64,000 bases of DNA from an uncultured Clostridia bacterium (GCA_934463165.1 CAKSJG010000016.1:1-64000), one strand, 5' to 3'. Positions 7,249 to 30,716 are shown, counted from the first letter of the stretch. Numbers and translations: made by a program. The notes: generated by a model from the letters alone, not told the origin.

Positions 7249-8181
7249 TTGGAATTCAGGCATGTATCGGTTTTGCTTAAAGAATCCGTTGACTCTCTTA
7301 AAATCCGCAGCGGAGGCATATATGCCGACGGAACACTCGGCGGCGGCGGTCACAGCCTTGAAATACTAAAAAGGCTTTCCGGCAGCGGAATGCTTATCGG
7401 AACAGACCGAGACGCAGATGCGATTTCTGCGGCAAAGGAGCGCCTTTCAGGCTATGATAACATAAAATACATACACAGTAATTTTTCGAATATCAAGGCG
7501 ATTCTGGAGCGTGAGGGCATAGATCATCTTGACGGTGCGGTTATAGACCTCGGCGTTTCGTCTTATCAGCTTGACTGTGCCGAAAGAGGCTTTTCGTATA
7601 TGGCGGATGCTCCGCTTGATATGAGAATGAACAAAGATGATGCCTTAAGCGCATACGATGTTGTAAATACATATGAAGAAAGTCGTCTGATAAAGATATT
7701 TTATGAATACGGCGAAGAAAAATTTGCTCCGAGGATTGCATCGTTTATAGTCCGAGAGAGAGAAGGAAAACCGATAGAAACCACGCTTGAGCTTTCGGAT
7801 ATAATAAAGCGCGCCGTTCCCGATAAATTTAAAAAGAACGGTTCGCATCCTGCAAAAAGGGTGTTTCAGGCGATAAGAATAGAGGTCAACGGCGAGCTTG
7901 CAGGCTTAAGAAAATCTCTTGAAGATTTTTTTGACGTTTTGTCACCCGGCGGCAGACTTGCGGTAATAACCTTTCATTCACTTGAAGACAGAATAGTAAA
8001 ACAGACCTTTGCTTCATTTGCAAAGGGGTGCACATGCCCGAAGGACTTCCCCGTGTGTATATGCGGCAATAAACCCAAAGGCACGATAATAACGCGCAAG
8101 CCGATTCTTCCGTCGGACGAAGAGATGTCGGTTAATAAAAGGTCCAAAAGCGCCAAACTCAGAGTGGCGGAAAAACTCTGA
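7249..8181 (+). CDS. rsmH: 16S rRNA (cytosine1402-N4)-methyltransferase RsmH (MraW).
   Basis: TTG start after AAGGGGG. SAM motif [10 protein letters not shown]. Conserved position after mraZ. Confidence 0.9.
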
Positions 8182-8195
8182 AAAATAATTACGAG

Positions 8196-8693
8196 GTGAA
8201 AACGTTGTCCGCAAAATATTATGATGGCACGTCAGCTTATAAAATAGAAGAATATTATAACTACACCGACAAATACGAAAAGAAAAACAAAAAAAGTATT
8301 CGTCCGCATCCAAAACGTGCATTAGGGCTCAACAAGAAAAAGCTTGCGGCGCTCATAATCTCTGTATTTGCAGTTGCAATAGGTTATCTGTATGCCAATG
8401 CGGTTTTGATAGAATCAGCAACGGAGGTCAGCGATTTAACCGATAAGCTGCAAAACGCAAAAGATACAAATACACAGCTTTCGTTTGACATCACATCGGG
8501 AGTTGATCTTTCAGATGTAAAGAAAAAGGCGGAAACGAAATTCGGAATGCAGCGTCCGGAAGATTATCAGAATGTTTATGTGGATGTCGTTCAGAACGAT
8601 TATGCCGAGATTTCGGGTAAAAAGAGTGAAACCGGCGGAATACTTGATAAAATGATAACGGCGCTCAGCTCGTTCCTTGCATATATTAAATGA
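8196..8693 (+). CDS. ftsL: Cell division protein FtsL-like (single TM helix plus coiled-coil).
   Basis: GTG start. Basic N-terminus, TM LAALIISVFAVAIGYLY, then coiled-coil. Position between rsmH and the PBP gene. Confidence 0.65.
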   Translation: MKTLSAKYYDGTSAYKIEEYYNYTDKYEKKNKKSIRPHPKRALGLNKKKLAALIISVFAVAIGYLYANAVLIESATEVSDLTDKLQNAKDTNTQLSFDITSGVDLSDVKKKAETKFGMQRPEDYQNVYVDVVQNDYAEISGKKSETGGILDKMITALSSFLAYIK

Positions 8694-8891: not shown

Positions 8892-11177
8892 ATGATAAAA
8901 AGGGTAAATGTAAGTATTCAGAAAAGAATGCTTGTGCTTCTTATAGCCGCTGTTGTTCTTCTTGCCGCCATGCTTGTAAGAATAATGTGGATACAGACGA
9001 TTCACGGCAAGGAATACAGTAAAAATGCAGCTTTGCAGCAGACAAAGGATGTTGTTGTATCCTCAAAAAGAGGAACAATTTACGACAGAAACATGAACGA
9101 ACTTGCAAAAAGTGCGTCAGCCGATACCGTAACAATCAGTCCGCGTGAGATTAAAAAAGCAAAAAAGACCGAGGAGGTAACAAACGGTCTTGCCGATATT
9201 CTTAAAATGGATAAAAAGGATGTCGAAAAAATCGTATCACGCGATTCATCTTATGAAATAGTAAAAAGAAAAATAGACAAAAGCGTATCGGACGCTTTGC
9301 GCAAAAAAAATTACCCCGGTGTTACGCTTGTCGAAGACTACAAGAGATATTACCCCGGCGGCAGTCTTGCGGCGCATGTTATAGGTTTTGTCGGCACGGA
9401 TAACCAGGGTCTTTCGGGAATTGAAATGACATACGAAAACTATCTTAAAGGTTTGCCCGGAAGAATAGTAACGGCAAAAAATGCCGCAGGCACAAACATG
9501 CCTTATAAATACGAAAAATTTATAGACCCCGAAAACGGCGTTAACATTGTCCTCACCATAGACGAGGTTATTCAGAGAAAAGCAGAGGACTGTCTGAAAA
9601 AGACAGCCGAGGAATATGATGTTCAAAACGGCGCTGCGTGTATCATAATGGGCGCAAAAACGGGCGAAATTCTTGCAATGGCAACATACCCGACGTATGA
9701 CCTAAACAAGCCGTTTACCGTAGTCAGCGAGAAAGAACGGGAAAAGATAGACGAAGAAGAGGACGATAAGAAAAAGAATCAGATGACGTCCGACGTGCTC
9801 AATAAACAATGGCGAAACAAGGCCGTTGTTGACGCGTATGAGCCGGGTTCTACGTTTAAATCCATGGTTGCGGCAATGGCTCTTGAAGAAAATGTCGTAA
9901 GCCTTAACGAAGAATTTGTCTGCACGGGTTCTCTCCGCGTTGCGGACCGCGATATAAGCTGCGCAAACACCTCAGGTCACGGAAACGAAACATTTGTAAA
10001 AGGTGTTCACAATTCCTGCAACCCCATGTTTATGACGGTCGGCGCGAGGCTCGGAACTCAAAGATTTTATAAATATTACAAGGCGTTCGGATTCGGTGCG
10101 AAAACGGGATTTGACCTCCCGGGTGAAGCTCTCGGTTCGTTTTATGCAATGAAGAATTTTAACGAGGTTGAGCTTGCAACATCGTCGTTCGGTCAGGGCT
10201 TTACGGTTACTCCGCTTCAGCTTATAACCGCATACACGGCAATAACAAACGACGGAATGATGATCAGACCTCATCTGATAAAAGCGTTGTCCGATGATAA
10301 CGGCAATATAATCAAAAATTACGAGCCCGAAAAGATCAGGCAGGTTGTAAGCAAAGAAACTGCAAACACCGTCTGCAAAATACTTGAGGGCGTTGCTTCA
10401 GAGGGTACGAGTAAAAATGCATATATAGACGGTTACCGCGTTGCCGGCAAAACCGGTACGAGTGAAAAAATCCCGAGAGGAAACGGCAAATATGTTGCTT
10501 CTTTCGTGGGTTTTGCCCCGGCTGACGATCCCGAGGTTATATGCTTGCTTATGTTTGACGAACCGATGAAAGGCTCTCACATGGGCGGTCAGGTAGCGGC
10601 TCCGGTATTTAAAGAGATAATGTCCGATGTTTTGGTATATCTCCAGGTGCCGAGCACAAGTGCAGAAGATAACAGCGTTAAATATAACTATGTTCCCGAT
10701 GTAAAGGGCAAGGCTAAGTCAGAAGCGCAAAAGAGCCTTTCCGACAGCGGCTTTAAGGTTAAAATTATCGGCTCGGGTGAAAATGTCGTATCTCAGAGCC
10801 CCGTTGCGGGCACGGCTCTCGGCAGCAATGCTGTTGTGATTCTGTATACTGAGAATACATCCGATGATTATGTCACTGTTCCCGATCTTTACGGAGCGTA
10901 TGCATCGGATGCAAATGTACTTTTGGTAAATGCCGATCTGAACATGAAGCTCAGCTCTGCCGCCGCTGCGGCAAAGAACCTTGTCGGCAATCAGATTCCG
11001 GCGGCGGGTTCGCAGGTGCTGCGCGGAAGCATCGTAACGCTTGAATTTAACTACACGGGCAACCGTGCAACGGATATAAAGACAAAGGTTGAAAGCAAGA
11101 AAAAGACCGATGAAAGCGATGATGAGGATAAACCGTCGGATGAAAAAAACGATAAAAAGACAAAACAGGATGAATAG
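8892..11177 (+). CDS. Class B penicillin-binding protein (FtsI/SpoVD/PBP2B type) with two C-terminal PASTA domains and a charged K/D/E tail.
   Basis: AAAAGGAG RBS 9 nt before ATG 8892. TM anchor. Transpeptidase motifs STFK, SCN, KTGT. Two PASTA-like repeats. Confidence 0.85.
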   Translation: MIKRVNVSIQKRMLVLLIAAVVLLAAMLVRIMWIQTIHGKEYSKNAALQQTKDVVVSSKRGTIYDRNMNELAKSASADTVTISPREIKKAKKTEEVTNGLADILKMDKKDVEKIVSRDSSYEIVKRKIDKSVSDALRKKNYPGVTLVEDYKRYYPGGSLAAHVIGFVGTDNQGLSGIEMTYENYLKGLPGRIVTAKNAAGTNMPYKYEKFIDPENGVNIVLTIDEVIQRKAEDCLKKTAEEYDVQNGAACIIMGAKTGEILAMATYPTYDLNKPFTVVSEKEREKIDEEEDDKKKNQMTSDVLNKQWRNKAVVDAYEPGSTFKSMVAAMALEENVVSLNEEFVCTGSLRVADRDISCANTSGHGNETFVKGVHNSCNPMFMTVGARLGTQRFYKYYKAFGFGAKTGFDLPGEALGSFYAMKNFNEVELATSSFGQGFTVTPLQLITAYTAITNDGMMIRPHLIKALSDDNGNIIKNYEPEKIRQVVSKETANTVCKILEGVASEGTSKNAYIDGYRVAGKTGTSEKIPRGNGKYVASFVGFAPADDPEVICLLMFDEPMKGSHMGGQVAAPVFKEIMSDVLVYLQVPSTSAEDNSVKYNYVPDVKGKAKSEAQKSLSDSGFKVKIIGSGENVVSQSPVAGTALGSNAVVILYTENTSDDYVTVPDLYGAYASDANVLLVNADLNMKLSSAAAAAKNLVGNQIPAAGSQVLRGSIVTLEFNYTGNRATDIKTKVESKKKTDESDDEDKPSDEKNDKKTKQDE

Positions 11178-11205
11178 CCGATAATCAGAAAAGGGGATCT
11201 TTAAT

Positions 11206-12648
11206 TTGAAAATAGAAGAACTTATAAAAAAACTTAATCCGGTTGCCGTATACGGCGAGTCTTGCGCAGACGCGGATTTTGTTACAAACGATTCGAGAAA
11301 ATGCAAAGAAAACTCGGTTTTTGCCGCCGTAAGAGGCTTTGCGACAGACGGGCATAGGTTTATAGGCAAGGCTGTTGAAAACGGAGCCTGCGCGGTTATA
11401 TGCGAGGAGTATAACCCGAGCTTTGACGTTTGCCAGATAGTTGTCGAAAACAGTCGTTGTGCCGAGGCGATTGCGGCAAGCGAAATACTCGGGAATCCGT
11501 CAGAAAAATTTAAGCTTATCGGGGTCACCGGAACAAACGGCAAAACAACAATAACATATCTTGTAAAACACATTCTTGATTCATGCGGATATAAAACAGG
11601 TCTCATCGGCACAAATCAGAATATGATAGGCGACAAAATACTCGAAACCGGCAGAACAACTCCCGATTCCGTAGAGCTTCAGCAGCTTTTTGCAAAAATG
11701 GCGGACGCCGGTGTTGATTTTTGCATTATGGAAGTATCGTCGCATGCGCTTGCGCTTGACAGGGTTTACGGCTGTCACTATGCCGTAGGAGGGTTTACAA
11801 ACCTTACTCAGGATCATCTTGATTTTCACAAAACAATGGATAATTACGCCGCCGCAAAGGCAAAGCTTTTTGAAATATCCGACGCGGCTGTCATAAACAC
11901 CGACGATAAATACGGAAAGAAAATGGCAGAAAACTGCCCCTGCAAGGTCATTGGCTACGGCGTCGAAGCCGATGCCGAGCTTAAAGCGGAGAATATAGAA
12001 TACAGAGCCTCGGGCATTTCGTTTGACGTATCCGGCAAGAGATATCATCTTGCCATTCCGGGTGAATTTTCGGTATATAACGCTCTATGCGCCATAGGTA
12101 TTGCAAAATCTGTCGGCACAGATGATGAGAAAATACGCGAAGCGCTCTCCACGGCGCATGGTGTAAAGGGCAGGGCGGAGGTTGTCCGCACAGATACGGA
12201 TTACACCGTTATAATAGACTATGCCCACACCCCGGACGGAATTGAAAACATTTTAAATGCCGTCCGAGGATTTGCAAAAAAGAGAATAATAATTGTTTTC
12301 GGATGCGGAGGAGACCGCGACAACACAAAACGTCCGATAATGGGTAAAATTGCAGGCAAGCTTGCCGATTTCTGTGTTGTTACAAGTGATAACCCCCGAA
12401 CCGAAGACCCCATGAGAATTATAAAAATGGTTGAAGACGGAGTTAAAGAGAGCGGATGTGACTACGTTGTCATCGAAAACCGCCGTGAAGCAATAAAATA
12501 TGCCATGGAGCATGCACATGCCGATGATATTATAGTCCTTGCGGGAAAAGGTCACGAAACATATCAGATTTTAAACAGCGGAACGATACATTTTGACGAG
12601 CGTGAGGTTGTCCGCGATATTTTGAATAAAAGGGGAAATATAAATTGA
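11206..12648 (+). CDS. murE: UDP-N-acetylmuramoyl-L-alanyl-D-glutamate--2,6-diaminopimelate ligase MurE.
   Basis: TTG start after AAAGGGGA. P-loop GVTGTNGKTT. DNPR motif typical of mDAP-adding MurE. Confidence 0.9.
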   Translation: MKIEELIKKLNPVAVYGESCADADFVTNDSRKCKENSVFAAVRGFATDGHRFIGKAVENGACAVICEEYNPSFDVCQIVVENSRCAEAIAASEILGNPSEKFKLIGVTGTNGKTTITYLVKHILDSCGYKTGLIGTNQNMIGDKILETGRTTPDSVELQQLFAKMADAGVDFCIMEVSSHALALDRVYGCHYAVGGFTNLTQDHLDFHKTMDNYAAAKAKLFEISDAAVINTDDKYGKKMAENCPCKVIGYGVEADAELKAENIEYRASGISFDVSGKRYHLAIPGEFSVYNALCAIGIAKSVGTDDEKIREALSTAHGVKGRAEVVRTDTDYTVIIDYAHTPDGIENILNAVRGFAKKRIIIVFGCGGDRDNTKRPIMGKIAGKLADFCVVTSDNPRTEDPMRIIKMVEDGVKESGCDYVVIENRREAIKYAMEHAHADDIIVLAGKGHETYQILNSGTIHFDEREVVRDILNKRGNIN

Positions 12649-14006
12649 TATATCCTACAGAACCGATGACAGCGTCGGAAATTGCAAGGGCATGCAAAGG
12701 CAGACTGATAAGCGGCGATCCCGATTTTAAGTTTACTTCCGTAACGACGGACAGCCGCACGACGGATAGCGGAACTCTTTTCATCCCTCTTAAGGGCGAA
12801 AGGTTTGACGGTCACGATTTTATAAAAAATGTTGTGGATTCGGGTGCGGGCGGCTATATCTTTTCTTCCGGGAAATGCACCCCCGACGGAAAATGCGCTG
12901 CAATAGAAGTAAATGACACTTCGGATGCAATTTTAGATATTGCCGCATACTACAGAAGCCGATTCGGTAACCTTACGGTTATCGGTCTTACGGGCAGCGT
13001 CGGCAAAACCACAACAAAGGGAATGATAGCGTCCGTTTTATCCGAAAAATATAAAACGCACAGCACGGAGAAAAACTATAACAACAATATCGGCGTTCCG
13101 CTGACTCTTTTCGGTCTTAAATCCGACGATGAAGCGGCGGTTGTCGAAATGGGAATGAGCGGCTTCGGCGAAATAAAGGTTTTGTCGGAGTGTGCGCGCC
13201 CCGATATTGCGGTTATAACCAATATCGGCACCTGCCATATTGAATTTCTCGGCAGCCGTGAGGGAATACTGAAAGCGAAATGCGAAATTTTTGACGGGTT
13301 GAAAAAAGGCGGAAAAGTTGTTTTGAACGGTGACGATTCGTATCTTGCGGGTCTTGACGGCAAAACGGAGCTTGACATAACATATGTCGGCATAAAGTCG
13401 GATCTGTGCAGATATAAAGCGGAAAACATCCGTCTTTCGGAATCGGGCGCCGATTTTGAAGCGGACGGAAAAAAATATCATATAAATGTTGCCGGAGGAC
13501 ATAATATATATAACGCTCTTACGGCAATTGCCGTCGGATATATGATGAATATGACATATGAAGAGATAAGAGCGGGTCTTGAAAGCTACAAAAGCGAGGG
13601 AATACGCCAGAATATTATTTCGTACGGCGGCATAAAAATAATAAATGACTGTTACAACGCAAGCCCCGACGCAATGAAAGCCGAGGCTGACGTCCTTGAA
13701 TCGCTTGCTGCAAAAAGAAGAATTGCCGTTCTCGGCGATATGGCGGAGCTCGGCGAAATGGGAGCGGAGCTTCACGGGGATGTCGGCAGATATTTAAACA
13801 AAAAAAATATTGATACTTTGGTAACGGTCGGTTCTCTTGCAAGACACATTGCCGAAAACGCAAAGAATATACCGTCGCATTGCTTTGATGACTGTGACGG
13901 CGCTACAGCGTTTTTAAAATCATATCTTTCAGAGGGAGATGCGGTTTTGATCAAGGCTTCGAGATGCATGAAATTCGAGAGAATATCAAAAGCGCTTTGT
14001 GAATAA
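12645..14006 (+). CDS. murF: UDP-N-acetylmuramoyl-tripeptide--D-alanyl-D-alanine ligase MurF.
   Basis: TTG start overlapping the murE stop (12645-12648). P-loop GLTGSVGKTTTK. Confidence 0.9.
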   Translation: MIYPTEPMTASEIARACKGRLISGDPDFKFTSVTTDSRTTDSGTLFIPLKGERFDGHDFIKNVVDSGAGGYIFSSGKCTPDGKCAAIEVNDTSDAILDIAAYYRSRFGNLTVIGLTGSVGKTTTKGMIASVLSEKYKTHSTEKNYNNNIGVPLTLFGLKSDDEAAVVEMGMSGFGEIKVLSECARPDIAVITNIGTCHIEFLGSREGILKAKCEIFDGLKKGGKVVLNGDDSYLAGLDGKTELDITYVGIKSDLCRYKAENIRLSESGADFEADGKKYHINVAGGHNIYNALTAIAVGYMMNMTYEEIRAGLESYKSEGIRQNIISYGGIKIINDCYNASPDAMKAEADVLESLAAKRRIAVLGDMAELGEMGAELHGDVGRYLNKKNIDTLVTVGSLARHIAENAKNIPSHCFDDCDGATAFLKSYLSEGDAVLIKASRCMKFERISKALCE

Positions 14007-14095
14007 GCGTATAATAAGCATACTTTAACTTCACGGCATACGCAAAAATGTGCGGAGGTTTAAGAGGACAATAACAAAAAAACGAGGTAATAAAA

Positions 14096-15061
14096 TTGAA
14101 CACAAACATACTGATAATATCAATTGTAATTTCATTTGTTGCGGCAATGGTTTGCGCCCCTGTCCTGATACCGATTCTTCATAAGCTTAAGTTCGGTCAG
14201 GAAATACGCGAAATCGGGCCGAGCTGGCACAAAAAAAAGAGCGGAACCCCCACAATGGGCGGATTTATATTTATAATTCCGACGGTTATCTGTACACTTT
14301 TGTTTGTGAGAAACACTTTTGGAGTGTGTCTTATGCTTTTCTCCGTTTCCTTTGCTTTTGTCGGGTTTATCGATGATTACATAAAGGTTGTCAAAAAGAG
14401 AAACCTCGGCCTGACCGAGGTGCAGAAGTTTTTGCTTCAGCTTTTGTTTTCGGTTGTATTTATCGCTGTCTGTGACTACATACTTGACCTCACCGACACA
14501 AAGATATTCATTCCGTTTGCAAAGAAATATGCGGATATAGGCATTTTTTACATACCGCTAACGCTTTTTGTCCTCATAGGAACGACAAACAGCGTTAATC
14601 TTACCGACGGCGTAGACGGTCTTGCGGCAAGCGTTACGGTTGTTGTATGCGCTTTTCTGGCAATACTCTCATACAAATGGGGTTATTATGATGTCACGGT
14701 GTTCAACGGGGCGGTGCTTGCGGCTCTTCTCGGATTTTTGGTTTTCAATCATCATCCCGCAAAAATATTTATGGGAGATACCGGCTCGCTGTTTCTCGGA
14801 GGAGTAGTTTGCTCCTCTGCGCTTATGATGAAAAATCCGCTCATACTCATAATCTGCGGCGGTGTGTATGTTATAGAAACCCTGTCTGTTATAATACAGG
14901 TTACATACTTTAAAAAGACTCATAAAAGAATATTTAAAATGACGCCGATACATCACCATTTTGAAATGTCGGGATGGAGTGAGGCAAAGATAGTCACTGC
15001 AGCAAGCTGCATGACGGCGGTTTTATGTCTGATATCATATTTTGCATGCGTGCAGCTGTGA
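14096..15061 (+). CDS. mraY: Phospho-N-acetylmuramoyl-pentapeptide transferase MraY.
   Basis: TTG start. Polytopic membrane protein. MraY motifs NxxNLTDGxDGL and HHHFE. Confidence 0.9.
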   Translation: MNTNILIISIVISFVAAMVCAPVLIPILHKLKFGQEIREIGPSWHKKKSGTPTMGGFIFIIPTVICTLLFVRNTFGVCLMLFSVSFAFVGFIDDYIKVVKKRNLGLTEVQKFLLQLLFSVVFIAVCDYILDLTDTKIFIPFAKKYADIGIFYIPLTLFVLIGTTNSVNLTDGVDGLAASVTVVVCAFLAILSYKWGYYDVTVFNGAVLAALLGFLVFNHHPAKIFMGDTGSLFLGGVVCSSALMMKNPLILIICGGVYVIETLSVIIQVTYFKKTHKRIFKMTPIHHHFEMSGWSEAKIVTAASCMTAVLCLISYFACVQL

Positions 15062-23377: not shown

Positions 23378-23420
23378 GAACAGCGGCCGTTCGGCTGCTG
23401 CTCTTTTTTAAATGAGAACC
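23378..23420. terminator. Bidirectional rho-independent terminator between convergent operons.
   Basis: AAAAAAGAA-CAGCGGCCG-TTCG-GCTGCTG-CTCTTTTTT. GC hairpin with an A-run upstream and a T-run downstream. Confidence 0.6.
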
Positions 23421-23481: not shown

Positions 23482-23766
23482 TTAATTCATAAGCTCAAAT
23501 GCCCCGGCATTTTTGCTGAGCTGTGCGTTGAATTCCGCTGCAAAGCTGTCCTGTGCTTCGCTGTTTTTAAGTGCTATTGCGTATTTGCGCGGAATAAGCA
23601 CTTCCTTTCCTCTCGGAACAATCATTCCGACGCCGTTTACTGCGACGAAAATGTCGTCCTTGTATTTGTCATTGTCTTTAAAAAGCTTCACCGGCACAAG
23701 CTCGTTGTAATATTCATGATCGCTCTTTATGTGTGCCGTTTCTCGGTTTTCGGTTTTTGCTGCCAT
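23482..23766 (-). CDS. Small 94-aa protein co-transcribed downstream of the capsid gene (function unknown).
   Basis: RBS-like AAAGAAAGG upstream. 28-nt gap after the capsid stop. No recognisable motif. Confidence 0.4.
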   Translation of the reverse strand: MAAKTENRETAHIKSDHEYYNELVPVKLFKDNDKYKDDIFVAVNGVGMIVPRGKEVLIPRKYAIALKNSEAQDSFAAEFNAQLSKNAGAFELMN

Positions 23767-23794
23767 TAATGTATACCGCCTTTCTTTGATGTTA

Positions 23795-25054
23795 TTAGTT
23801 TGCGCCGCCCTGGAATGTGGATGCGCTTTCGATTCTTATCATGTAGTTTTCAACAAGTCTTTCCGCAGTTTTTGTGCCTTTCCAGCCTGCTGTAGCTCTT
23901 TGATTGAGCGGATCCGCTGTTCCGCCCGAGCCGAGCTGCTTAACAATGTGTTGGAGTCCTCCTCCGGTTACCTCCGTAACACCGTATGCGTTGGCGCCGA
24001 GCACAAGAGTGGAATATATGTCTCTGCCGTCCGCTCCGGAATCTCCGGGGTAAATAGCGCTGTTTGCAGTCGGTGTAGTTGTCGGCGCTTTGGAAAGATA
24101 AATATAATTGCTTGCCGCATTAAAGCCGCAGATTTCGGCAACCTCATATACGCTGCCCGTTTTGATTTGAATGCTTCTTCCGATAAGCGAGTTATCATCG
24201 GCGCTTATGGTTTCGTTAACGGTTACCTGATATTTGCTTGCTTCGCCCTTGCCCTCCGTGACTGTTCCGGCAGCCGAGAGCGCGTTGTATGCCGAAACGG
24301 TAAGGTTTCTTGAACCCTTAGTAAGGTCGGGAGCGTGGAATATTTTGGCTTCCGTGCTTTCAACGAATCTTATTCCGGCAAGCTTTCCTATTTCACCCTC
24401 AAAAAGCTCCGTTGCCGCGCTGTATTTGTGCACGTCGATCCATTCGTCATCACGCATGAGGTCGTATGCAACGTCCGGATGAATTATTGCCACGTAGCTC
24501 CCGTTTATTTTGGGGGCATTCTGCGTTTTAAGGAATCTTGCCGCTCTGAATATATCGTCAACAGTGATTTTGCATTCCGATGTGAGTGCGCTTCTGTCTT
24601 CCTTGCCGCCCGCATACATAACGCTTGTACCGCCGTTTAAAATCTCTCTTGTAACGGTGTCAAGAGTTGATCCTGCCTGTGAGCCGAGAAGCTTTGTGGT
24701 TTCGAGCAATGTGTTGTCAATAGCCGTAAGCATGAGCACATCCGACATTGTAACATAATAACCGTACTGTTCAACGGTTGCGGTTACATTTGTTACGGAG
24801 AGTGATCCGCCGTCGGGTGTTACGCCCTCGGAGAGGGGAGTCGTCGCCTTTGAAAACGGAATAAATTTACGGAATTCAATTGACTTACCTCCGTTTACGG
24901 GGATCGGGTGCTTCTGACCGAACTGATCGTGAACGAGGTTTGGCTTTGCGTTATCGATAAGATAATCGCTGTAATAGGTTTTCATTTCGGCAGATAAAGT
25001 ATTTGTGCCGGTTGTGTTTGTATTCATGTCAAAAAGTTTAAGATTAATTTTCAT
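23795..25054 (-). CDS. Phage major capsid protein, HK97 fold, N4-gp56-like family.
   Basis: AAAGGAG RBS 7 nt before the ATG. N-terminal signature 'LSAEMKTYYSDYLIDNAKPNLVHDQFGQKHPIPVNGGKSIEFRKF...TVEQYGYYVTMSDV'. Roughly 90-aa extra segment in the middle of the protein. Confidence 0.75.
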   Translation of the reverse strand: MKINLKLFDMNTNTTGTNTLSAEMKTYYSDYLIDNAKPNLVHDQFGQKHPIPVNGGKSIEFRKFIPFSKATTPLSEGVTPDGGSLSVTNVTATVEQYGYYVTMSDVLMLTAIDNTLLETTKLLGSQAGSTLDTVTREILNGGTSVMYAGGKEDRSALTSECKITVDDIFRAARFLKTQNAPKINGSYVAIIHPDVAYDLMRDDEWIDVHKYSAATELFEGEIGKLAGIRFVESTEAKIFHAPDLTKGSRNLTVSAYNALSAAGTVTEGKGEASKYQVTVNETISADDNSLIGRSIQIKTGSVYEVAEICGFNAASNYIYLSKAPTTTPTANSAIYPGDSGADGRDIYSTLVLGANAYGVTEVTGGGLQHIVKQLGSGGTADPLNQRATAGWKGTKTAERLVENYMIRIESASTFQGGAN

Positions 25055-25072
25055 TATTGGTCTCCTTTCAAA

Positions 25073-25951
25073 TTAAAAGCTGATTTGTTCTCCGCGTGCA
25101 ACTCTGCGCGCTATTTCAGCTCTTTCCGAGGGAGTAAGCTTGGATACATCTTTTGTAAAAAGAGCCGTGCTTTTTCCGGATATACCGTTTTCGGCAGGTC
25201 TTGAATTTCTGGCTCTTATGGCATCCGTGGTCTGCTTTCTTGCGTCATCTGCCGCCTTATTTACCAAGCTGTCCACTATTTCATCGTGGTGAACGGTCAG
25301 ATAAGCGTCTCTCAGTGATATTCCCGCTTGCAAAAGTCTTAGGAATTCGGGGTTTCCCGCTTCCGTCTCCATGTCAAAATCGGGGTATTTTTCGCTTATC
25401 TGTGCCGATTCCTCCAGCCATGAACGCAGGGTGTTTTCCATTTTGATATCGCTTTGCTGCTGCATCATCTGTCTCTTTATGCTTTCGTTTTCAAATTCAA
25501 GCCTTTTGAGATGTTTAAGAGTATCCGTGTCAATCCCTCTTTTCTCGGCTTCTTCTTTTATGAAGCCGTCGTCGTTTGTTATTGCGTCTTTAAGTCCGCC
25601 GATGTCATCACCCGTTATGCCGTATTTCATTTTGAGCATCTCAATGATTTTTTCGTTTTGAATATTTTTTTCTTTGAGTGCGGAGCTCTCTTTAAACCTT
25701 CGTTTCAAATTATTCTGTATTCTCCGATCAAATTCTTCTTTGTACTTACCCTTGATAAGCTCTTCAAACTCGGCGTTTTTGTCGGTAATGACTTCCGCTG
25801 CCTTCATTTCTTCGGCAGCGCCGTTTTCTTCGTCGGCTGTCCGGTTTTGCGGTTGAGCGTCCGCCGCATCGGGGGATGCCTGTGCATTCGGTGCACCGTC
25901 CGGTGCGCCGGCATCTCCGTCAAATAAATTCAGCTCCATTTTGTATTTCAT
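25073..25951 (-). CDS. Phage scaffolding protein (DUF4355-like, coiled-coil).
   Basis: Start MKYKMELNLFDGD is the phage scaffold 'LNLQFF'-type N-terminus. Acidic low-complexity region. Long K/E coiled-coil. 18-nt gap to the capsid gene. Confidence 0.6.
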   Translation of the reverse strand: MKYKMELNLFDGDAGAPDGAPNAQASPDAADAQPQNRTADEENGAAEEMKAAEVITDKNAEFEELIKGKYKEEFDRRIQNNLKRRFKESSALKEKNIQNEKIIEMLKMKYGITGDDIGGLKDAITNDDGFIKEEAEKRGIDTDTLKHLKRLEFENESIKRQMMQQQSDIKMENTLRSWLEESAQISEKYPDFDMETEAGNPEFLRLLQAGISLRDAYLTVHHDEIVDSLVNKAADDARKQTTDAIRARNSRPAENGISGKSTALFTKDVSKLTPSERAEIARRVARGEQISF

Positions 25952-26073
25952 GTTTTCCTTCCTTTCGTCTTTCCGAAGTGTCCGGTTATCTCCGGTCTTT
26001 CCCGGGAGTCCGCAAGCCGATGTCATCCTTGGGCATTGTGTAGGTTTTTTGCTTCATCAAGCTTACGGATACT

Positions 26074-26108
26074 ATTATACATTACTTTCAAAAATTTTTT
26101 TTGCTCCG
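26074..26108 (-). promoter_or_regulatory. Candidate promoter of the scaffold-capsid operon (extended -10 TGTATAAT on the minus strand).
   Basis: Plus-strand ATTATACA at 26072-26079 reads as TGnTATAAT on the minus strand. A-tract upstream. About 115-nt leader to the ATG. Confidence 0.3.
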
Positions 26109-26190
26109 TACGAAAAAAATAAAACGCCCGAAAATACGGATGCCATGCGGCTTTTAAAGATTTTTGCGTAAAAAAATATGCAAAATGGGC

Positions 26191-26225
26191 AAAAAAATAT
26201 CACGTATGTTTTACCATACGTGATA
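26191..26225 (-). terminator. Terminator for the minus-strand lipoprotein gene: perfect 11-bp palindrome TATCACGTATG/CATACGTGATA plus U7.
   Basis: Arms 26198-26208 and 26215-26225, 6-nt loop. On the minus strand it is followed by TTTTTTT (plus-strand A7 at 26191-26197). Confidence 0.5.
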
Positions 26226-26274
26226 GTATAATTAGGCATATCGTGTTCAAATCCCGTATGCCTGCAATATTAAA

Positions 26275-26775
26275 TCAATTCCCCGATCCGGCCTGTGCCT
26301 GCTGAACTTCGAGAATAACCTGTATCTGATCCAAAATCTTTTTTTCTTCTTCGCTTCCGCTTCCCTTAACCTTGGCATACTCTGTCATAAGATTTTGCAG
26401 ATTCTCGCTTGTCAGCTCAACTTCGGTGCCGTCCTCGGTCTTTGCCGCCTTGTTGCCTTTTGAATCGGTGTATACCTCGGCATTACCGTATTTTGTCTGT
26501 TCGTTTTGAGCTGCATTTCCCGATTGATTGCTGCCCGATGCCGCTGTTTCGTTTTGATTTGCCGATGCGTTGTCCGACTTTTTCGTGTTGTCGGACTGAC
26601 CGTCACTGTTTTTATTTTTGTCGTTTTTTTCGTTCGTCTTTTTCTCGGAAGATGAAGAATTTTTATTATTTTTTGCATCATCCGATTTTCCGCATCCGGC
26701 AAGCATGGACGCTCCCGAAATAAGCGCAAGTGCGGTAAGCAGTGCCGCTGTTTTTTTAAAATTAATACCTTTCAT
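26275..26775 (-). CDS. Low-complexity (N/S/K/D/Q-rich) lipoprotein.
   Basis: GGAGGTGGAT RBS. True start ATG 26775 (MKGINFKK...), not the ORF-track start. Lipobox LAGCGK. Confidence 0.6.
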   Translation of the reverse strand: MKGINFKKTAALLTALALISGASMLAGCGKSDDAKNNKNSSSSEKKTNEKNDKNKNSDGQSDNTKKSDNASANQNETAASGSNQSGNAAQNEQTKYGNAEVYTDSKGNKAAKTEDGTEVELTSENLQNLMTEYAKVKGSGSEEEKKILDQIQVILEVQQAQAGSGN

Positions 26776-27595: not shown

Positions 27596-27916
27596 TTCGG
27601 ATATCGACGTAATGCCTTAAGCTCACGGGAACTGAACACGATATGCCCTTTGTTTGAAAAATTAAAGTCTTTTCAATTTGTCGTCCTTGAAAGGCGTCAG
27701 CCTGTCTGCGTCCTCCGCATTGAAAATACAAATAATTTTTCTAAACAAAGGGTCAAAGAGTCAAAAAAGAAAAAATTTTGTATCAGACAAAGAAAATTCG
27801 AAAATAATACTGACGTATATTTGATGAATTTTCTGCAGTATTATGCAAAATTTTCCTTTTTAGACCACATCGGGTTCAATTCCCGTGAGCTTAAGCTGCT
27901 GTGTTAATATCCGAAC
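27596..27916. repeat. Imperfect inverted repeats of about 45 bp flanking a 236-bp AT-rich core that contains a nested inverted repeat.
   Basis: 27615-27637 matches the reverse complement of 27874-27896 at 21 of 23 positions. 27596-27605 matches 27907-27916 at 10 of 10. Inner repeat CCCTTTGTTTGAAAAATT (27654-27671) versus AATTTTTCTAAACAAAGGG (27742-27760). Confidence 0.7.
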
Positions 27917-28062
27917 TTTGGTAAACATATAATCTGTTGGCATACCCTAACGCCTCGCCCGAAAAGCGCTTGCAGACGAGCGGATGGATAATATCCGCCC
28001 CTACGCGCATGGGGAAGAAAAAATTTCTTGCATAATATTAAATTATTGTGTTTATATTGCGC

Positions 28063-28222
28063 AAGCGGAACGGTGTGGTCACCGTTCCCTACGTAGCTAT
28101 TACAAGTTTGCAATATATTATTAAACAGAATCATATTACAGCTTTTCGTTTAAATCAATTTGTTAATTGAAAATATACCTGTCAATTTATTCGTAGGGAA
28201 CGGTGCCCACACCGTTCCGCTG
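28063..28222. mobile_element. MITE/Correia-like element, copy A (~160 bp; roughly 30-bp TIRs that each fold as a GGAACGGTG...CACCGTTCC hairpin).
   Basis: Left end GCGGAACGGTGTGGTCACCGTTCCCTACGTAG. Right end CGTAGGGAACGGTGCCCACACCGTTCCGC. Internal AT-rich sequence is shared with copy B. Confidence 0.65.
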
Positions 28223-28273
28223 CATAAAACATATAAAATAATATGATTAAACGCAAGAACGAGTGTTCGAATA

Positions 28274-28840: not shown

Positions 28841-28914
28841 TGGACCTTCAGGGACTCGAACCCCGGACCGACCGGTTATGAGCCGGTTGCTCTAACCAAC
28901 TGAGCTAAAGGTCC
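28841..28914 (-). tRNA. tRNA with anticodon CAT; acceptor-stem C4:G69/C5:G68 suggests tRNA-Ile2 (lysidine) rather than elongator or initiator Met.
   Basis: Minus-strand sequence folds as GGACCTT-TA-GCTC-AGTTGGTTA-GAGC-A-ACCGG-CTCATAA-CCGGT-CGGTC-CGGGG-TTCGAGT-CCCTG-AAGGTCC-A. That is a 7-bp acceptor stem, a T-loop TTCGAGT, and no encoded CCA. Confidence 0.85.
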
Positions 28915-30547: not shown

Positions 30548-30716
30548 TTATTTTTCATCGGAACGGTGTGGGCACCGTTCCCTACGTAGTCATTATTAAA
30601 TATTCGTAATTTAATAATTGGAATCATATTGGTGAATTTTGTTTAAACAAATACAATTAATAGGAACTGTACCTATCAATTTATTTGTAGGGAACGCTGA
30701 CCACAGCGTTCCGCAA
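30548..30716. mobile_element. MITE/Correia-like element, copy B (same family as 28063-28222, same orientation).
   Basis: Left end CGGAACGGTGTGGGCACCGTTCCCTACGTAG. Right end TGTAGGGAACGCTGACCACAGCGTTCCGC. Shared internal blocks GAATCATATT, TTGTTTAAA, TACCTNTCAATTTATT. Confidence 0.65.

Follow-up and report, generated by a model that had tools for sequence, protein, structure and literature searches.

A podophage-derived gene transfer agent (GTA) of gut Clostridia, FpGTA, is known from Faecalibacterium prausnitzii (Borodovich et al., Nat Commun 2026, PMC12946183); it forms 40-nm particles containing host DNA pieces of 8.4-8.9 kb. The FpGTA operon encodes the small and large terminase subunits (TerS, TerL), a portal, Prp, a major capsid protein (MCP) of the 'N4-gp56 family', a nozzle and a TolA-like protein, and a second operon is located 125 kb from the first. 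The same study observed GTA-like packaging in Oscillospiraceae and Christensenellaceae, where the loci were not identified (PMC12946183). Here, we report on a stretch of 64,000 nucleotides from an uncultured Clostridia bacterium (GCA_934463165.1, CAKSJG010000016.1:1-64000), called the window below. As an earlier note on this DNA described, it carries three minus-strand open reading frames (ORFs) of the same orientation at 23482-26026, which encode a protein in scaffold position, an MCP and a small protein of 94 amino acids (aa), together the trio (Table 1). We give an even chance to the reading that the trio serves as head-shell operon in a podophage-derived GTA-like element of the FpGTA type that has been domesticated, is inherited vertically and is spread over several loci. 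The earlier note had offered a nanocompartment, a GTA-like element and satellite-type capsid piracy as options, and the GTA-like one fares best of the three, as FpGTA uses an MCP of the N4-gp56 family.

The likeness to FpGTA covers several points. Both systems are podophage-derived, occur in gut Clostridia and have an N4-gp56-family MCP (RCH50849.1 in FpGTA, the proteins being compared by family name only). In both, the genes occupy more than one chromosomal locus, and integrase and replication genes are lacking. Also, the FpGTA gene set TerL-portal-Prp-(scaffold)-MCP-...-nozzle-TolA-like matches that of one group of related loci (group B, see below). However, TerS, TerL, portal, scaffold and MCP lie in one 10.5-kb operon in FpGTA, whereas here the trio is separate from an S24 repressor-TerS-TerL module. 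Particles and packaging have been demonstrated for FpGTA, whereas the window lineage is known from its genes, and the searches, which covered +/-10 kb around each match, yielded neither a portal nor a nozzle, fibre or lysis gene for it. The classical GTAs RcGTA, CcGTA and BaGTA (viriforms) are similar in that their structural genes are inherited vertically under purifying selection, lie at several loci and are under host-type regulation. They differ in their siphovirus-like ancestry, their HK97-type gp5 with protease and their occurrence in Alphaproteobacteria, and a complete head-tail set and the packaging of random DNA have been demonstrated for them. RcGTA has a known link to SOS/LexA. The TerS of RcGTA and FpGTA is without an evident DNA-binding domain, and the TerS of the stand-alone terminase modules described below (D-type) is without the N-terminal helix-turn-helix (HTH) of phage TerS.

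The call of an N4-gp56-like MCP was firmly supported. The 419-aa protein matched TIGR04387 (N4-gp56 MCP) with E=1.3e-91 and 307 bits against a cutoff of 60, scored above the cutoff for Pfam Phage_capsid_4 and Phage_capsid_3, and matched phrog_1357 at 1e-89. A profile search of the PDB returned the capsid proteins 9d82, 9d7z and 9e99 (E~3e-7). The AlphaFold2 (AF2) model, built from an alignment shallow in diversity, had a mean predicted local distance difference test score (pLDDT) of 56 and a poorly modelled core; with this low-confidence model, Foldseek placed the capsids of N4, Moo19, B2, CUS-3 and P22 first, at a probability of ~1 and a template modelling (TM) score of only 0.21. The extra internal segment described earlier is likewise real: it comprises ~100 residues (~245-345), which are missing from the closest relatives, proteins of 322-328 aa that are 80-87% identical to the window MCP. 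This insertion domain is the sole confident part of the AF2 model (pLDDT ~90), and local Foldseek matches over ~100 columns point weakly to beta-sandwich domains of phage tail proteins (ranks 35 and 49). No encapsulin family matched the MCP, for which Pfam gave phage-capsid families only.

The scaffold-position ORF spans 25073-26026 (317 aa). Its start was placed at 25951, giving 292 aa, because of the strong Shine-Dalgarno sequence (SD; AAGGAAGG) and the agreement of the orthologues. The protein matched phrog_13908 (E=1.4e-75) and had no Pfam or PDB match. Thus, the label DUF4355-like, which had been given to it, has to be dropped: neither the window protein nor 12 relatives matched PF14265 at E<=1, nor any other Pfam family. 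We infer a scaffold function from its position in true phages, between Prp and MCP, and from a conserved basic C-terminal helix. The 94-aa protein matched phrog_15239 (E=1.5e-21); this phrog, as phrog_13908, is annotated without function. It had no Pfam match, a profile search of the PDB was empty, and its single-sequence AF2 model (pLDDT 52) was unusable. The small gene is always found 3' of the MCP gene, in phages and host loci alike, and a capsid-associated role is presumed for its product. The N-termini of the two larger proteins, MKINLKLFD in the MCP (residues 1-10) and MELNLFDGD / MKYKMELNLFDGD in the scaffold protein (residues 1-12), resemble the L27/Prp cleavage motif of the head proteins of phage 80alpha. 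A Prp gene adjoins the scaffold gene in related phages; the host-resident loci have no Prp gene of their own.

Scanning one genome per species, we found relatives in 155 genomes, and the genetic context was analyzed for 80 loci of these (numbered with the prefix L), with genes called as longest ORFs and with +/-10 kb in view around each match. The trio turned out to be a standard head cassette (scaffold-MCP-small) that belongs to a large family of podophages with genomes of ~40 kb from gut Clostridia; their gene order is TerS-TerL-(nozzle)-portal-Prp-scaffold-MCP-small. The phages bearing this cassette also carry SSB, DnaB, methylase, diversity-generating retroelement and holin/lysis genes. 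Small faecal contigs named 'Bacteriophage sp.' (MT83xxxx) were considered as possible satellites and proved to be fragments of ordinary phages. When their ORFs were clustered, the 80 loci fell into four contexts. Group A presents scaffold-MCP-small-TerS-TerL among conserved host genes in 13 species, and group B presents full phage-type modules. Group C, in Acutalibacteraceae, presents scaffold-MCP-small-x-x-nozzle with host genes on both sides; its six genes encode the scaffold, the MCP and the small protein, followed by one protein of 363 aa, one of phrog_12105 and a nozzle-like one of phrog_511. The group C module contains no TerL or portal gene, its host flanks are conserved, a GGTGGGGGGAA box lies upstream of its -10 box, and it is probably an independent domestication. 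In group D, the trio stands alone between hisS/aspS or gpr and clpC, with an insert-less MCP 80-87% identical to that of the window; two members (L041, L042) carry TerS-TerL-lipoprotein directly upstream of the trio.

Host-resident scaffold proteins share 41-75% identity among themselves and 30-44% with phage scaffolds, and host-resident TerL share 73-94% among themselves and 57-65% with phage TerL. The MCP and the small protein, on the other hand, are 64-92% identical across phages and the host groups (window, D and A), whatever their context. Because this identity is uniform, a rough neighbour-joining tree of the MCPs interleaves phage and host copies; it was too flat to part phage from host, and the identity matrices of TerL and scaffold proteins were used instead. 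Our reading of these comparisons is that the clade formed by the window and groups D and A would go back to a single ancient domestication, with later rearrangement separating the modules.

Terminase genes of this clade were also found apart from any trio. TerL proteins 82-86% identical to the TerL of L041 sit among housekeeping genes in a four-gene module ordered as a Zn-ribbon protein (minus strand), an HTH-S24 (LexA/CI-like) repressor, TerS and TerL. One such module (L099, JAFQBA010000139) belongs to the same metagenome-assembled genome (MAG) as a trio-only locus (L050, JAFQBA010000023). For the window species, the trio proteins correspond to MDY3304735-37 (SOW78_10790-10800), and a TerL of the same accession block, MDY3302879.1, is identical at 477/478 positions to the TerL of the module L093. 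The cluster members of this TerL and of the trio have in common a longest contig of exactly 107,529 bp, which places the terminase locus outside the 64-kb window and probably within ~100 kb of it. The trio is therefore not the self-contained orphan that had been supposed, as a TerS-TerL pair with an S24 repressor stands at a separate locus both in the window species and in the second, trio-only MAG.

The TerL of L041 and L042 evolve with omega (dN/dS) of 0.042. The D-type TerS has 129-151 aa and no N-terminal HTH-like segment, which phage TerS (176-179 aa) and the TerS of group A (168 aa) both have; the two types of TerS are not established as homologues. The Zn-ribbon protein has 114-127 aa with two CxxC...C..C zinc-ribbon repeats, and the region between its gene and that of the repressor is rich in ACAC/GTGT repeats. 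This divergent Zn-ribbon/S24 pair resembles a lysogeny-type switch that has been retained, in which case induction by SOS would be expected. Of the models of anti-phage defence systems in PADLOC-DB 2.0, none matched the trio, TerS or TerL, nor the Zn-ribbon protein and the lipoprotein; the repressor gave only weak generic HTH hits.

Synteny and purifying selection were examined in relatives, and both were found. In the closest other species (L091, MCP 92%), the trio occupies the same site, beside Hpre-NusG_II-Dus-NrdR-FtsZ. Between the window and L091, amino acid identities (omega) were 0.92 (0.032) for the MCP, 0.90 (0.025) for the small protein and 0.80 (0.13) for the scaffold protein, and the flanking proteins were 0.78 (Dus), 0.72 (MurA), 0.91 (FtsW) and 0.92 (NrdR) identical, with dS of 1-2.8 throughout. 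The constraint on the MCP (omega 0.03) is on par with that on FtsW or NrdR. Three more sets of syntenic species behave in the same way: the MCP is 0.93 identical against 0.94 for HisS in L047/L050, 0.93-0.95 against 0.95 for Gpr in L071/L075/L080, and 0.83-0.93 against ~0.80 for ClpC in five species with a common downstream clpC flank. Over the syntenic trio orthologues, omega ranged from 0.03 to 0.16, values that are rough because dS is near saturation in many pairs, which leaves the low dN unaffected, and divergence tracked that of the flanking housekeeping genes. Within the species-level cluster, the MCP was full length in 18/18 variants and the scaffold intact in 18/19, so that the search for frameshifted copies brought up one truncated scaffold allele and no truncated MCP. 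The view that these capsid genes are intact and maintained was upheld, and we exclude a decaying remnant because of the synteny, the low dN and the intact variants.

The control region of the trio is also shared with phages. The (T)GTATAAT sequence upstream of the scaffold gene is kept in host loci of groups A, C and D and in the true phages L070, L102 and L104, and we infer an activator-dependent or extended -10-like promoter for the trio. The structured 5' leader RNA that follows comprises three elements. P1 is a long-range stem pairing 26055-26068 with 26010-22 and enclosing the box ACACAATGCC. P2 (25992-26005) and P3 (25964-25977) are 4-bp hairpins with invariant GAAAGA loops after GAC(A/T)C, and P3 abuts the scaffold SD at 25957-63. 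The hairpin unit was found in 26 or more loci, true phages included, with one or two hairpins per leader; leaders occur in L005-L017, L022-L060 (group C), L041-L091 and the phages L070, L102 and L104. When units were defined regardless of pairing, 34 of 49 had all four pairs, with five stem sequences. Compensatory changes were observed at 4/4 stem pairs, in a set that was pre-filtered for pairing and whose 100% paired units are therefore circular. The sequence of P1 varies yet remains complementary in L045, L071, L075, L062, L042, L047 and L063, according to single-sequence folds; with full leaders, RNAalifold recovered P2 and P3 but not P1, whose variable sequence is misaligned by MAFFT. Rfam had no match to the leader, which we regard as a candidate new cis-regulatory RNA common to the phages and their domesticated descendants. 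The trio can persist as a self-contained unit because the phage scaffold gene already has its own -10 box and leader.

The scaffolding protein gp8 of phage P22 is under autogenous control. The likeness lies in a regulatory element on the scaffold gene's own message, here the conserved hairpin pair at the SD. The two have no sequence relation, and a like mechanism is proposed here from position and conservation.

The box in the P1 loop may connect the two loci. It is kept in the trio leaders of L091, L047 and L062, with one mismatch in L071/75/80, and each stand-alone terminase module examined (L093, L094, L096-L100; three species) has an exact copy in the intergenic region upstream of its S24 repressor gene. 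The chance of finding a given 10-mer in a region of ~300 nt is ~6e-4. Its presence at both loci together with this low expectation therefore suggests that the trio and the terminase genes form one regulon through a putative shared operator, ACACAATGCC. The leader with GAAAGA hairpins was also considered as a link to the terminase locus and is not present upstream of TerS.

Under the GTA-like reading, the genes of the particle system would be scattered over the chromosome and would be induced, probably via SOS-type cleavage of the S24 repressor. Scaffold and MCP would assemble procapsids, in which a host Prp could trim the L27/Prp-like N-termini, and the 94-aa protein would join the shell. TerS-TerL would then package host DNA into the shells. 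The ACACAATGCC box at both loci would couple their expression, and the GAAAGA hairpins over the SD would set scaffold translation, possibly autogenously as for P22 gp8.

Several points weigh against this scenario. The particle system of the window organism is read from gene content, and both links between a trio and a TerL depend on MAG membership (binning in one case, the accession block in the other). There are present-day phages whose MCP and small protein are 84-86% and 76-81% identical to those of the window, and the head proteins could potentially be interchangeable with phage parts. One metagenome strain (L001, ENA ERZ28614266 scaffold_3705) has a frameshifting scaffold deletion of 25 bp. 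Over 8 kb, this strain departs from the window only by the deletion, at 25428-25452, which splits the scaffold into 201 + 99 aa and represents either a rare loss-of-function allele or an assembly error. Above all, packaging by a terminase requires a portal, and host loci yielded no gene for a portal, nozzle, tail fibre or lysis in the +/-10 kb read around each match.

The portal was searched for with the L070 protein as query, by context look-ups, through NCBI cluster members and by a metagenome scan with an alignment of 13 portals. All looked-up relatives among the best 120 matches of the protein search were in phages. In the 80 metagenome portal loci, TerL and MCP adjoin wherever the sequence suffices, L158 and L188 excepted. 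In these two loci, from rumen metagenome, TerS-TerL-portal-Prp precede lysis-like genes, an integrase gene and a repressor gene (1060-8711 in L158), with no scaffold or MCP; their content is the mirror image of the window trio. A conserved TerL implies packaging and, with it, access to a portal, which is either encoded elsewhere and too divergent for these searches or provided by infecting phages. Its absence from the loci is not proof, because +/-10 kb around the matches was read in each case and no whole genome. It is this gap that holds the GTA-like reading at an even chance, leaves dependence on a helper as a real if minor possibility, and puts a DNA-free shell among the improbable explanations and a remnant among the very improbable ones.

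In the first of these alternatives, the host would keep the shell genes and TerS-TerL and would borrow portal, nozzle and tail from infecting podophages of the same family, either for infection-triggered transduction, in which host DNA is packaged and spread, or as a chromosomally fixed, satellite-like defence that sabotages assembly and packaging of the phage. We consider it possible at best. The searches for portal and tail genes gave none in host context, and the shell proteins may still fit phage portals because the MCP and small protein of phages are 76-86% identical to those of the window, whereas TerL and scaffold have diverged. The trio keeps a phage-type promoter without -35 and a leader, which a phage late factor could activate; the terminase module has a CI/LexA-like repressor, and the D-type TerS lacks the N-terminal HTH of phage TerS. 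On the other hand, elements for defence or piracy are usually mobile with a fast turnover, whereas these genes are fixed and syntenic, with omega of 0.03-0.05, no integrase, no replication module and no attachment-site (att) repeat, and PADLOC gave no match; also, a helper lineage would have had to persist throughout a divergence of dS>1.

Capsid-forming phage-inducible chromosomal islands (cf-PICIs) and other satellites show what such a helper-dependent element can look like: they are host-resident and repressor-controlled, have their own MCP/scaffold and terminase subunits, and receive the missing virion parts from a helper. However, satellites are mobile elements of patchy distribution that carry an integrase, att sites and a replication module, and in the case of cf-PICIs also encode portal and connectors, whereas here the trio and terminase genes are fixed, syntenic and split between loci. 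A phage satellite (PICI or cf-PICI) was therefore rejected for the window, which has no integrase, att site or replication genes and in which the position of the trio is fixed and syntenic. If the helper-dependent alternative is true, a portal-less capsid-plus-terminase regulon would sit between GTA and phage satellite, and neither class covers such a system.

It is improbable that scaffold, MCP and small protein form empty compartments or decoys, encapsulin-like and independent of the terminase. Within +/-10 kb, the trio alone is conserved in several species and in varied host contexts, and in many phages MCP and scaffold can assemble by themselves with no portal present, both of which would fit such a DNA-free shell. 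Nevertheless, the MCP belongs to a bona fide phage family with no encapsulin match, no cargo-like enzyme gene is conserved beside the trio, TerL is under purifying selection in the same genomes and has a cis-box in common with the trio, and the scaffold has been kept, a protein that normally exits the shell and makes room for DNA. Encapsulins do resemble the trio as small host operons of an HK97-fold shell protein with no other virion genes. They belong to another sequence family, have no scaffold or terminase partner, and take up cargo with targeting peptides, none of which is evident here. An encapsulin nanocompartment was thus rejected, since Pfam gave phage-capsid families only, a phage-type scaffold is present and no cargo gene is conserved beside the trio; the nanocompartment idea of the earlier note likewise does not agree with the missing encapsulin match and with the retention of a phage-type scaffold and terminase.

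A functionless prophage remnant, or a cassette recently re-acquired from phages by recombination, is very hard to credit and largely refuted: the frameshifted scaffold of one strain, the MITE-like repeat and tRNA nearby and the interleaving of phage and host MCPs in the rough tree speak for it, but the syntenic orthologues diverge in step with their flanks (dS 1-1.7) at very low dN, scaffold and TerL form host-specific clades, the MCP is intact in 18/18 and the scaffold in 18/19 variants, the leader structure is kept through compensatory changes, and the MITE is a dispersed repeat.

Table 1. Positions of the features discussed, in window coordinates unless a locus is named.
Feature	Position	Strand	Remarks
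Small head-cassette protein, 94 aa, phrog_15239	23482..23766	-	core motif KLFKDNxKYKDDVFVAVNG...PRG.EV.IPRKYA
MCP, 419 aa, N4-gp56 family (HK97-type)	23795..25054	-	TIGR04387, Pfam, phrog and PDB profile matches
MCP insertion domain, residues ~245-345	24020..24322	-	beta-rich; missing from 322-328-aa relatives
Scaffold-position protein, 292 aa, phrog_13908	25073..25951	-	acidic low-complexity N-terminal part; conserved basic C-terminus ...RAEIARRVARGEQISF
Structured 5' leader RNA, P1+P2+P3	25952..26072	-	fold z=-2.4
Box ACACAATGCC, P1 loop, candidate operator/recognition site	26032..26041	-	sole exact copy in the 64-kb window
-10 box TATAAT	26074..26079	-	context aaTGTATAATag; no recognisable -35; conserved in orthologues
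Bidirectional terminator, small gene / convergent Hpre/Gx-transporter gene	23378..23400	.	terminator-like hairpin
Terminator-like hairpin, end of upstream lipoprotein gene	26198..26225	-	11-bp stem then T-run; 5' boundary of the capsid transcription unit
Lipoprotein gene, directly upstream of the capsid unit	26275..26775	-	signal peptide with lipobox LAGC; own terminator
MITE-like repeats, ~330 bp	~27940-28264 and 30558-30714		palindromic core CGGAACGGTGTGGGCACCGTTCC; two copies in the window
tRNA-Met	28841-28914
Box ACACAATGCC in terminase loci	L093 8216-8225; L096 8607-8616; L098 8618-8627; L099 1632-1641
Divergent Zn-ribbon / S24 repressor pair	L093 7732-9024; L096 8109-9394; L098 8137-9405
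Group C six-gene module	~9200-15000		L022, L026, L029, L030, L034-L036, L049, L052, L058, L060

Within the window, the ORFs, the conserved TATAAT and the hairpins on both sides agree with the proposed three-gene minus-strand unit with its own promoter and flanking terminators. The intact genes had also been credited with strong ribosome-binding sites, which holds for the scaffold and MCP genes; the site of the small gene is only moderate. The base composition shows no anomaly. On one side lie the division and cell wall (dcw) cluster through ftsZ, then nrdR, dus, NusG_II and the Gx transporter; on the other lie the lipoprotein, a phosphoribosyltransferase (PRTase), a YbaK-like protein and tRNA-Met. 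The module is therefore flanked by housekeeping-type genes, as described before (dus/NusG_II/Gx transporter against lipoprotein/PRTase). The statement that the window holds no other phage gene was also correct: tblastn with all TerL, TerS, portal, nozzle and fibre relatives from the 80 related loci found no match in the 64 kb, nor did tblastn with the S24 repressor and Zn-ribbon proteins, and Pfam points to host functions for the unannotated ORFs. No integrase, replication gene or att-type direct repeat was found in the window.

The lipoprotein gene is fast-evolving (omega 0.25-0.30) and had no family match in the searches made. A gene of its family (cluster 40) immediately precedes the scaffold gene in L041 and L042, and L050 has one within 8 kb of it, whereas L091 has none at the corresponding position; it is possibly, and uncertainly, a part of the capsid module. 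The PRTase and lipoprotein genes, next upstream of the capsid promoter, lie between inverted repeats of 23 nt (26235-26257 / 27625-27647, 91% complementary). These repeats could mark an inversion or insertion that altered the upstream context relative to L091, where sigK, DHHW and MBOAT genes are found.

The tRNA and the repeats resembling miniature inverted-repeat transposable elements (MITEs) are indeed present nearby, as had been pointed out. Their value as signs of a prophage remnant did not hold, given a dispersed MITE and no integrase or att-type direct repeat. The same ~330-bp repeat lies at 12767-13092 of L093, beside the terminase locus of the window species; as a dispersed genomic repeat that this species also carries at an unrelated locus, it is uninformative on the capsid module.

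Sporulation genes are found near some trios. A pro-sigmaK-like gene (7824-8612) lies directly upstream of the trio in L091, and spoIIGA-sigE lie a few genes upstream of it in group A (L005-L017). The sigK neighbourhood recalls the skin element in sigK. We saw no promoter evidence and no sign of a functional connection for a link between the trio and sporulation.

Where the portal is encoded will decide whether this is a true multi-locus GTA or belongs to a new class that depends on a helper. The modules seen here (the shell trio, the terminase pair and the shell plus nozzle) would be missed by prophage and GTA finders, and host-clade TerL and scaffold proteins, the GAAAGA-hairpin leader and the ACACAATGCC box can serve as markers for them. 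GTA-like packaging of host DNA has recently emerged as common in gut Clostridia, with the responsible genes known only for Faecalibacterium. The locus described here and ~150 related species-level genomes suggest that the same podophage lineage has been domesticated well beyond Faecalibacterium.

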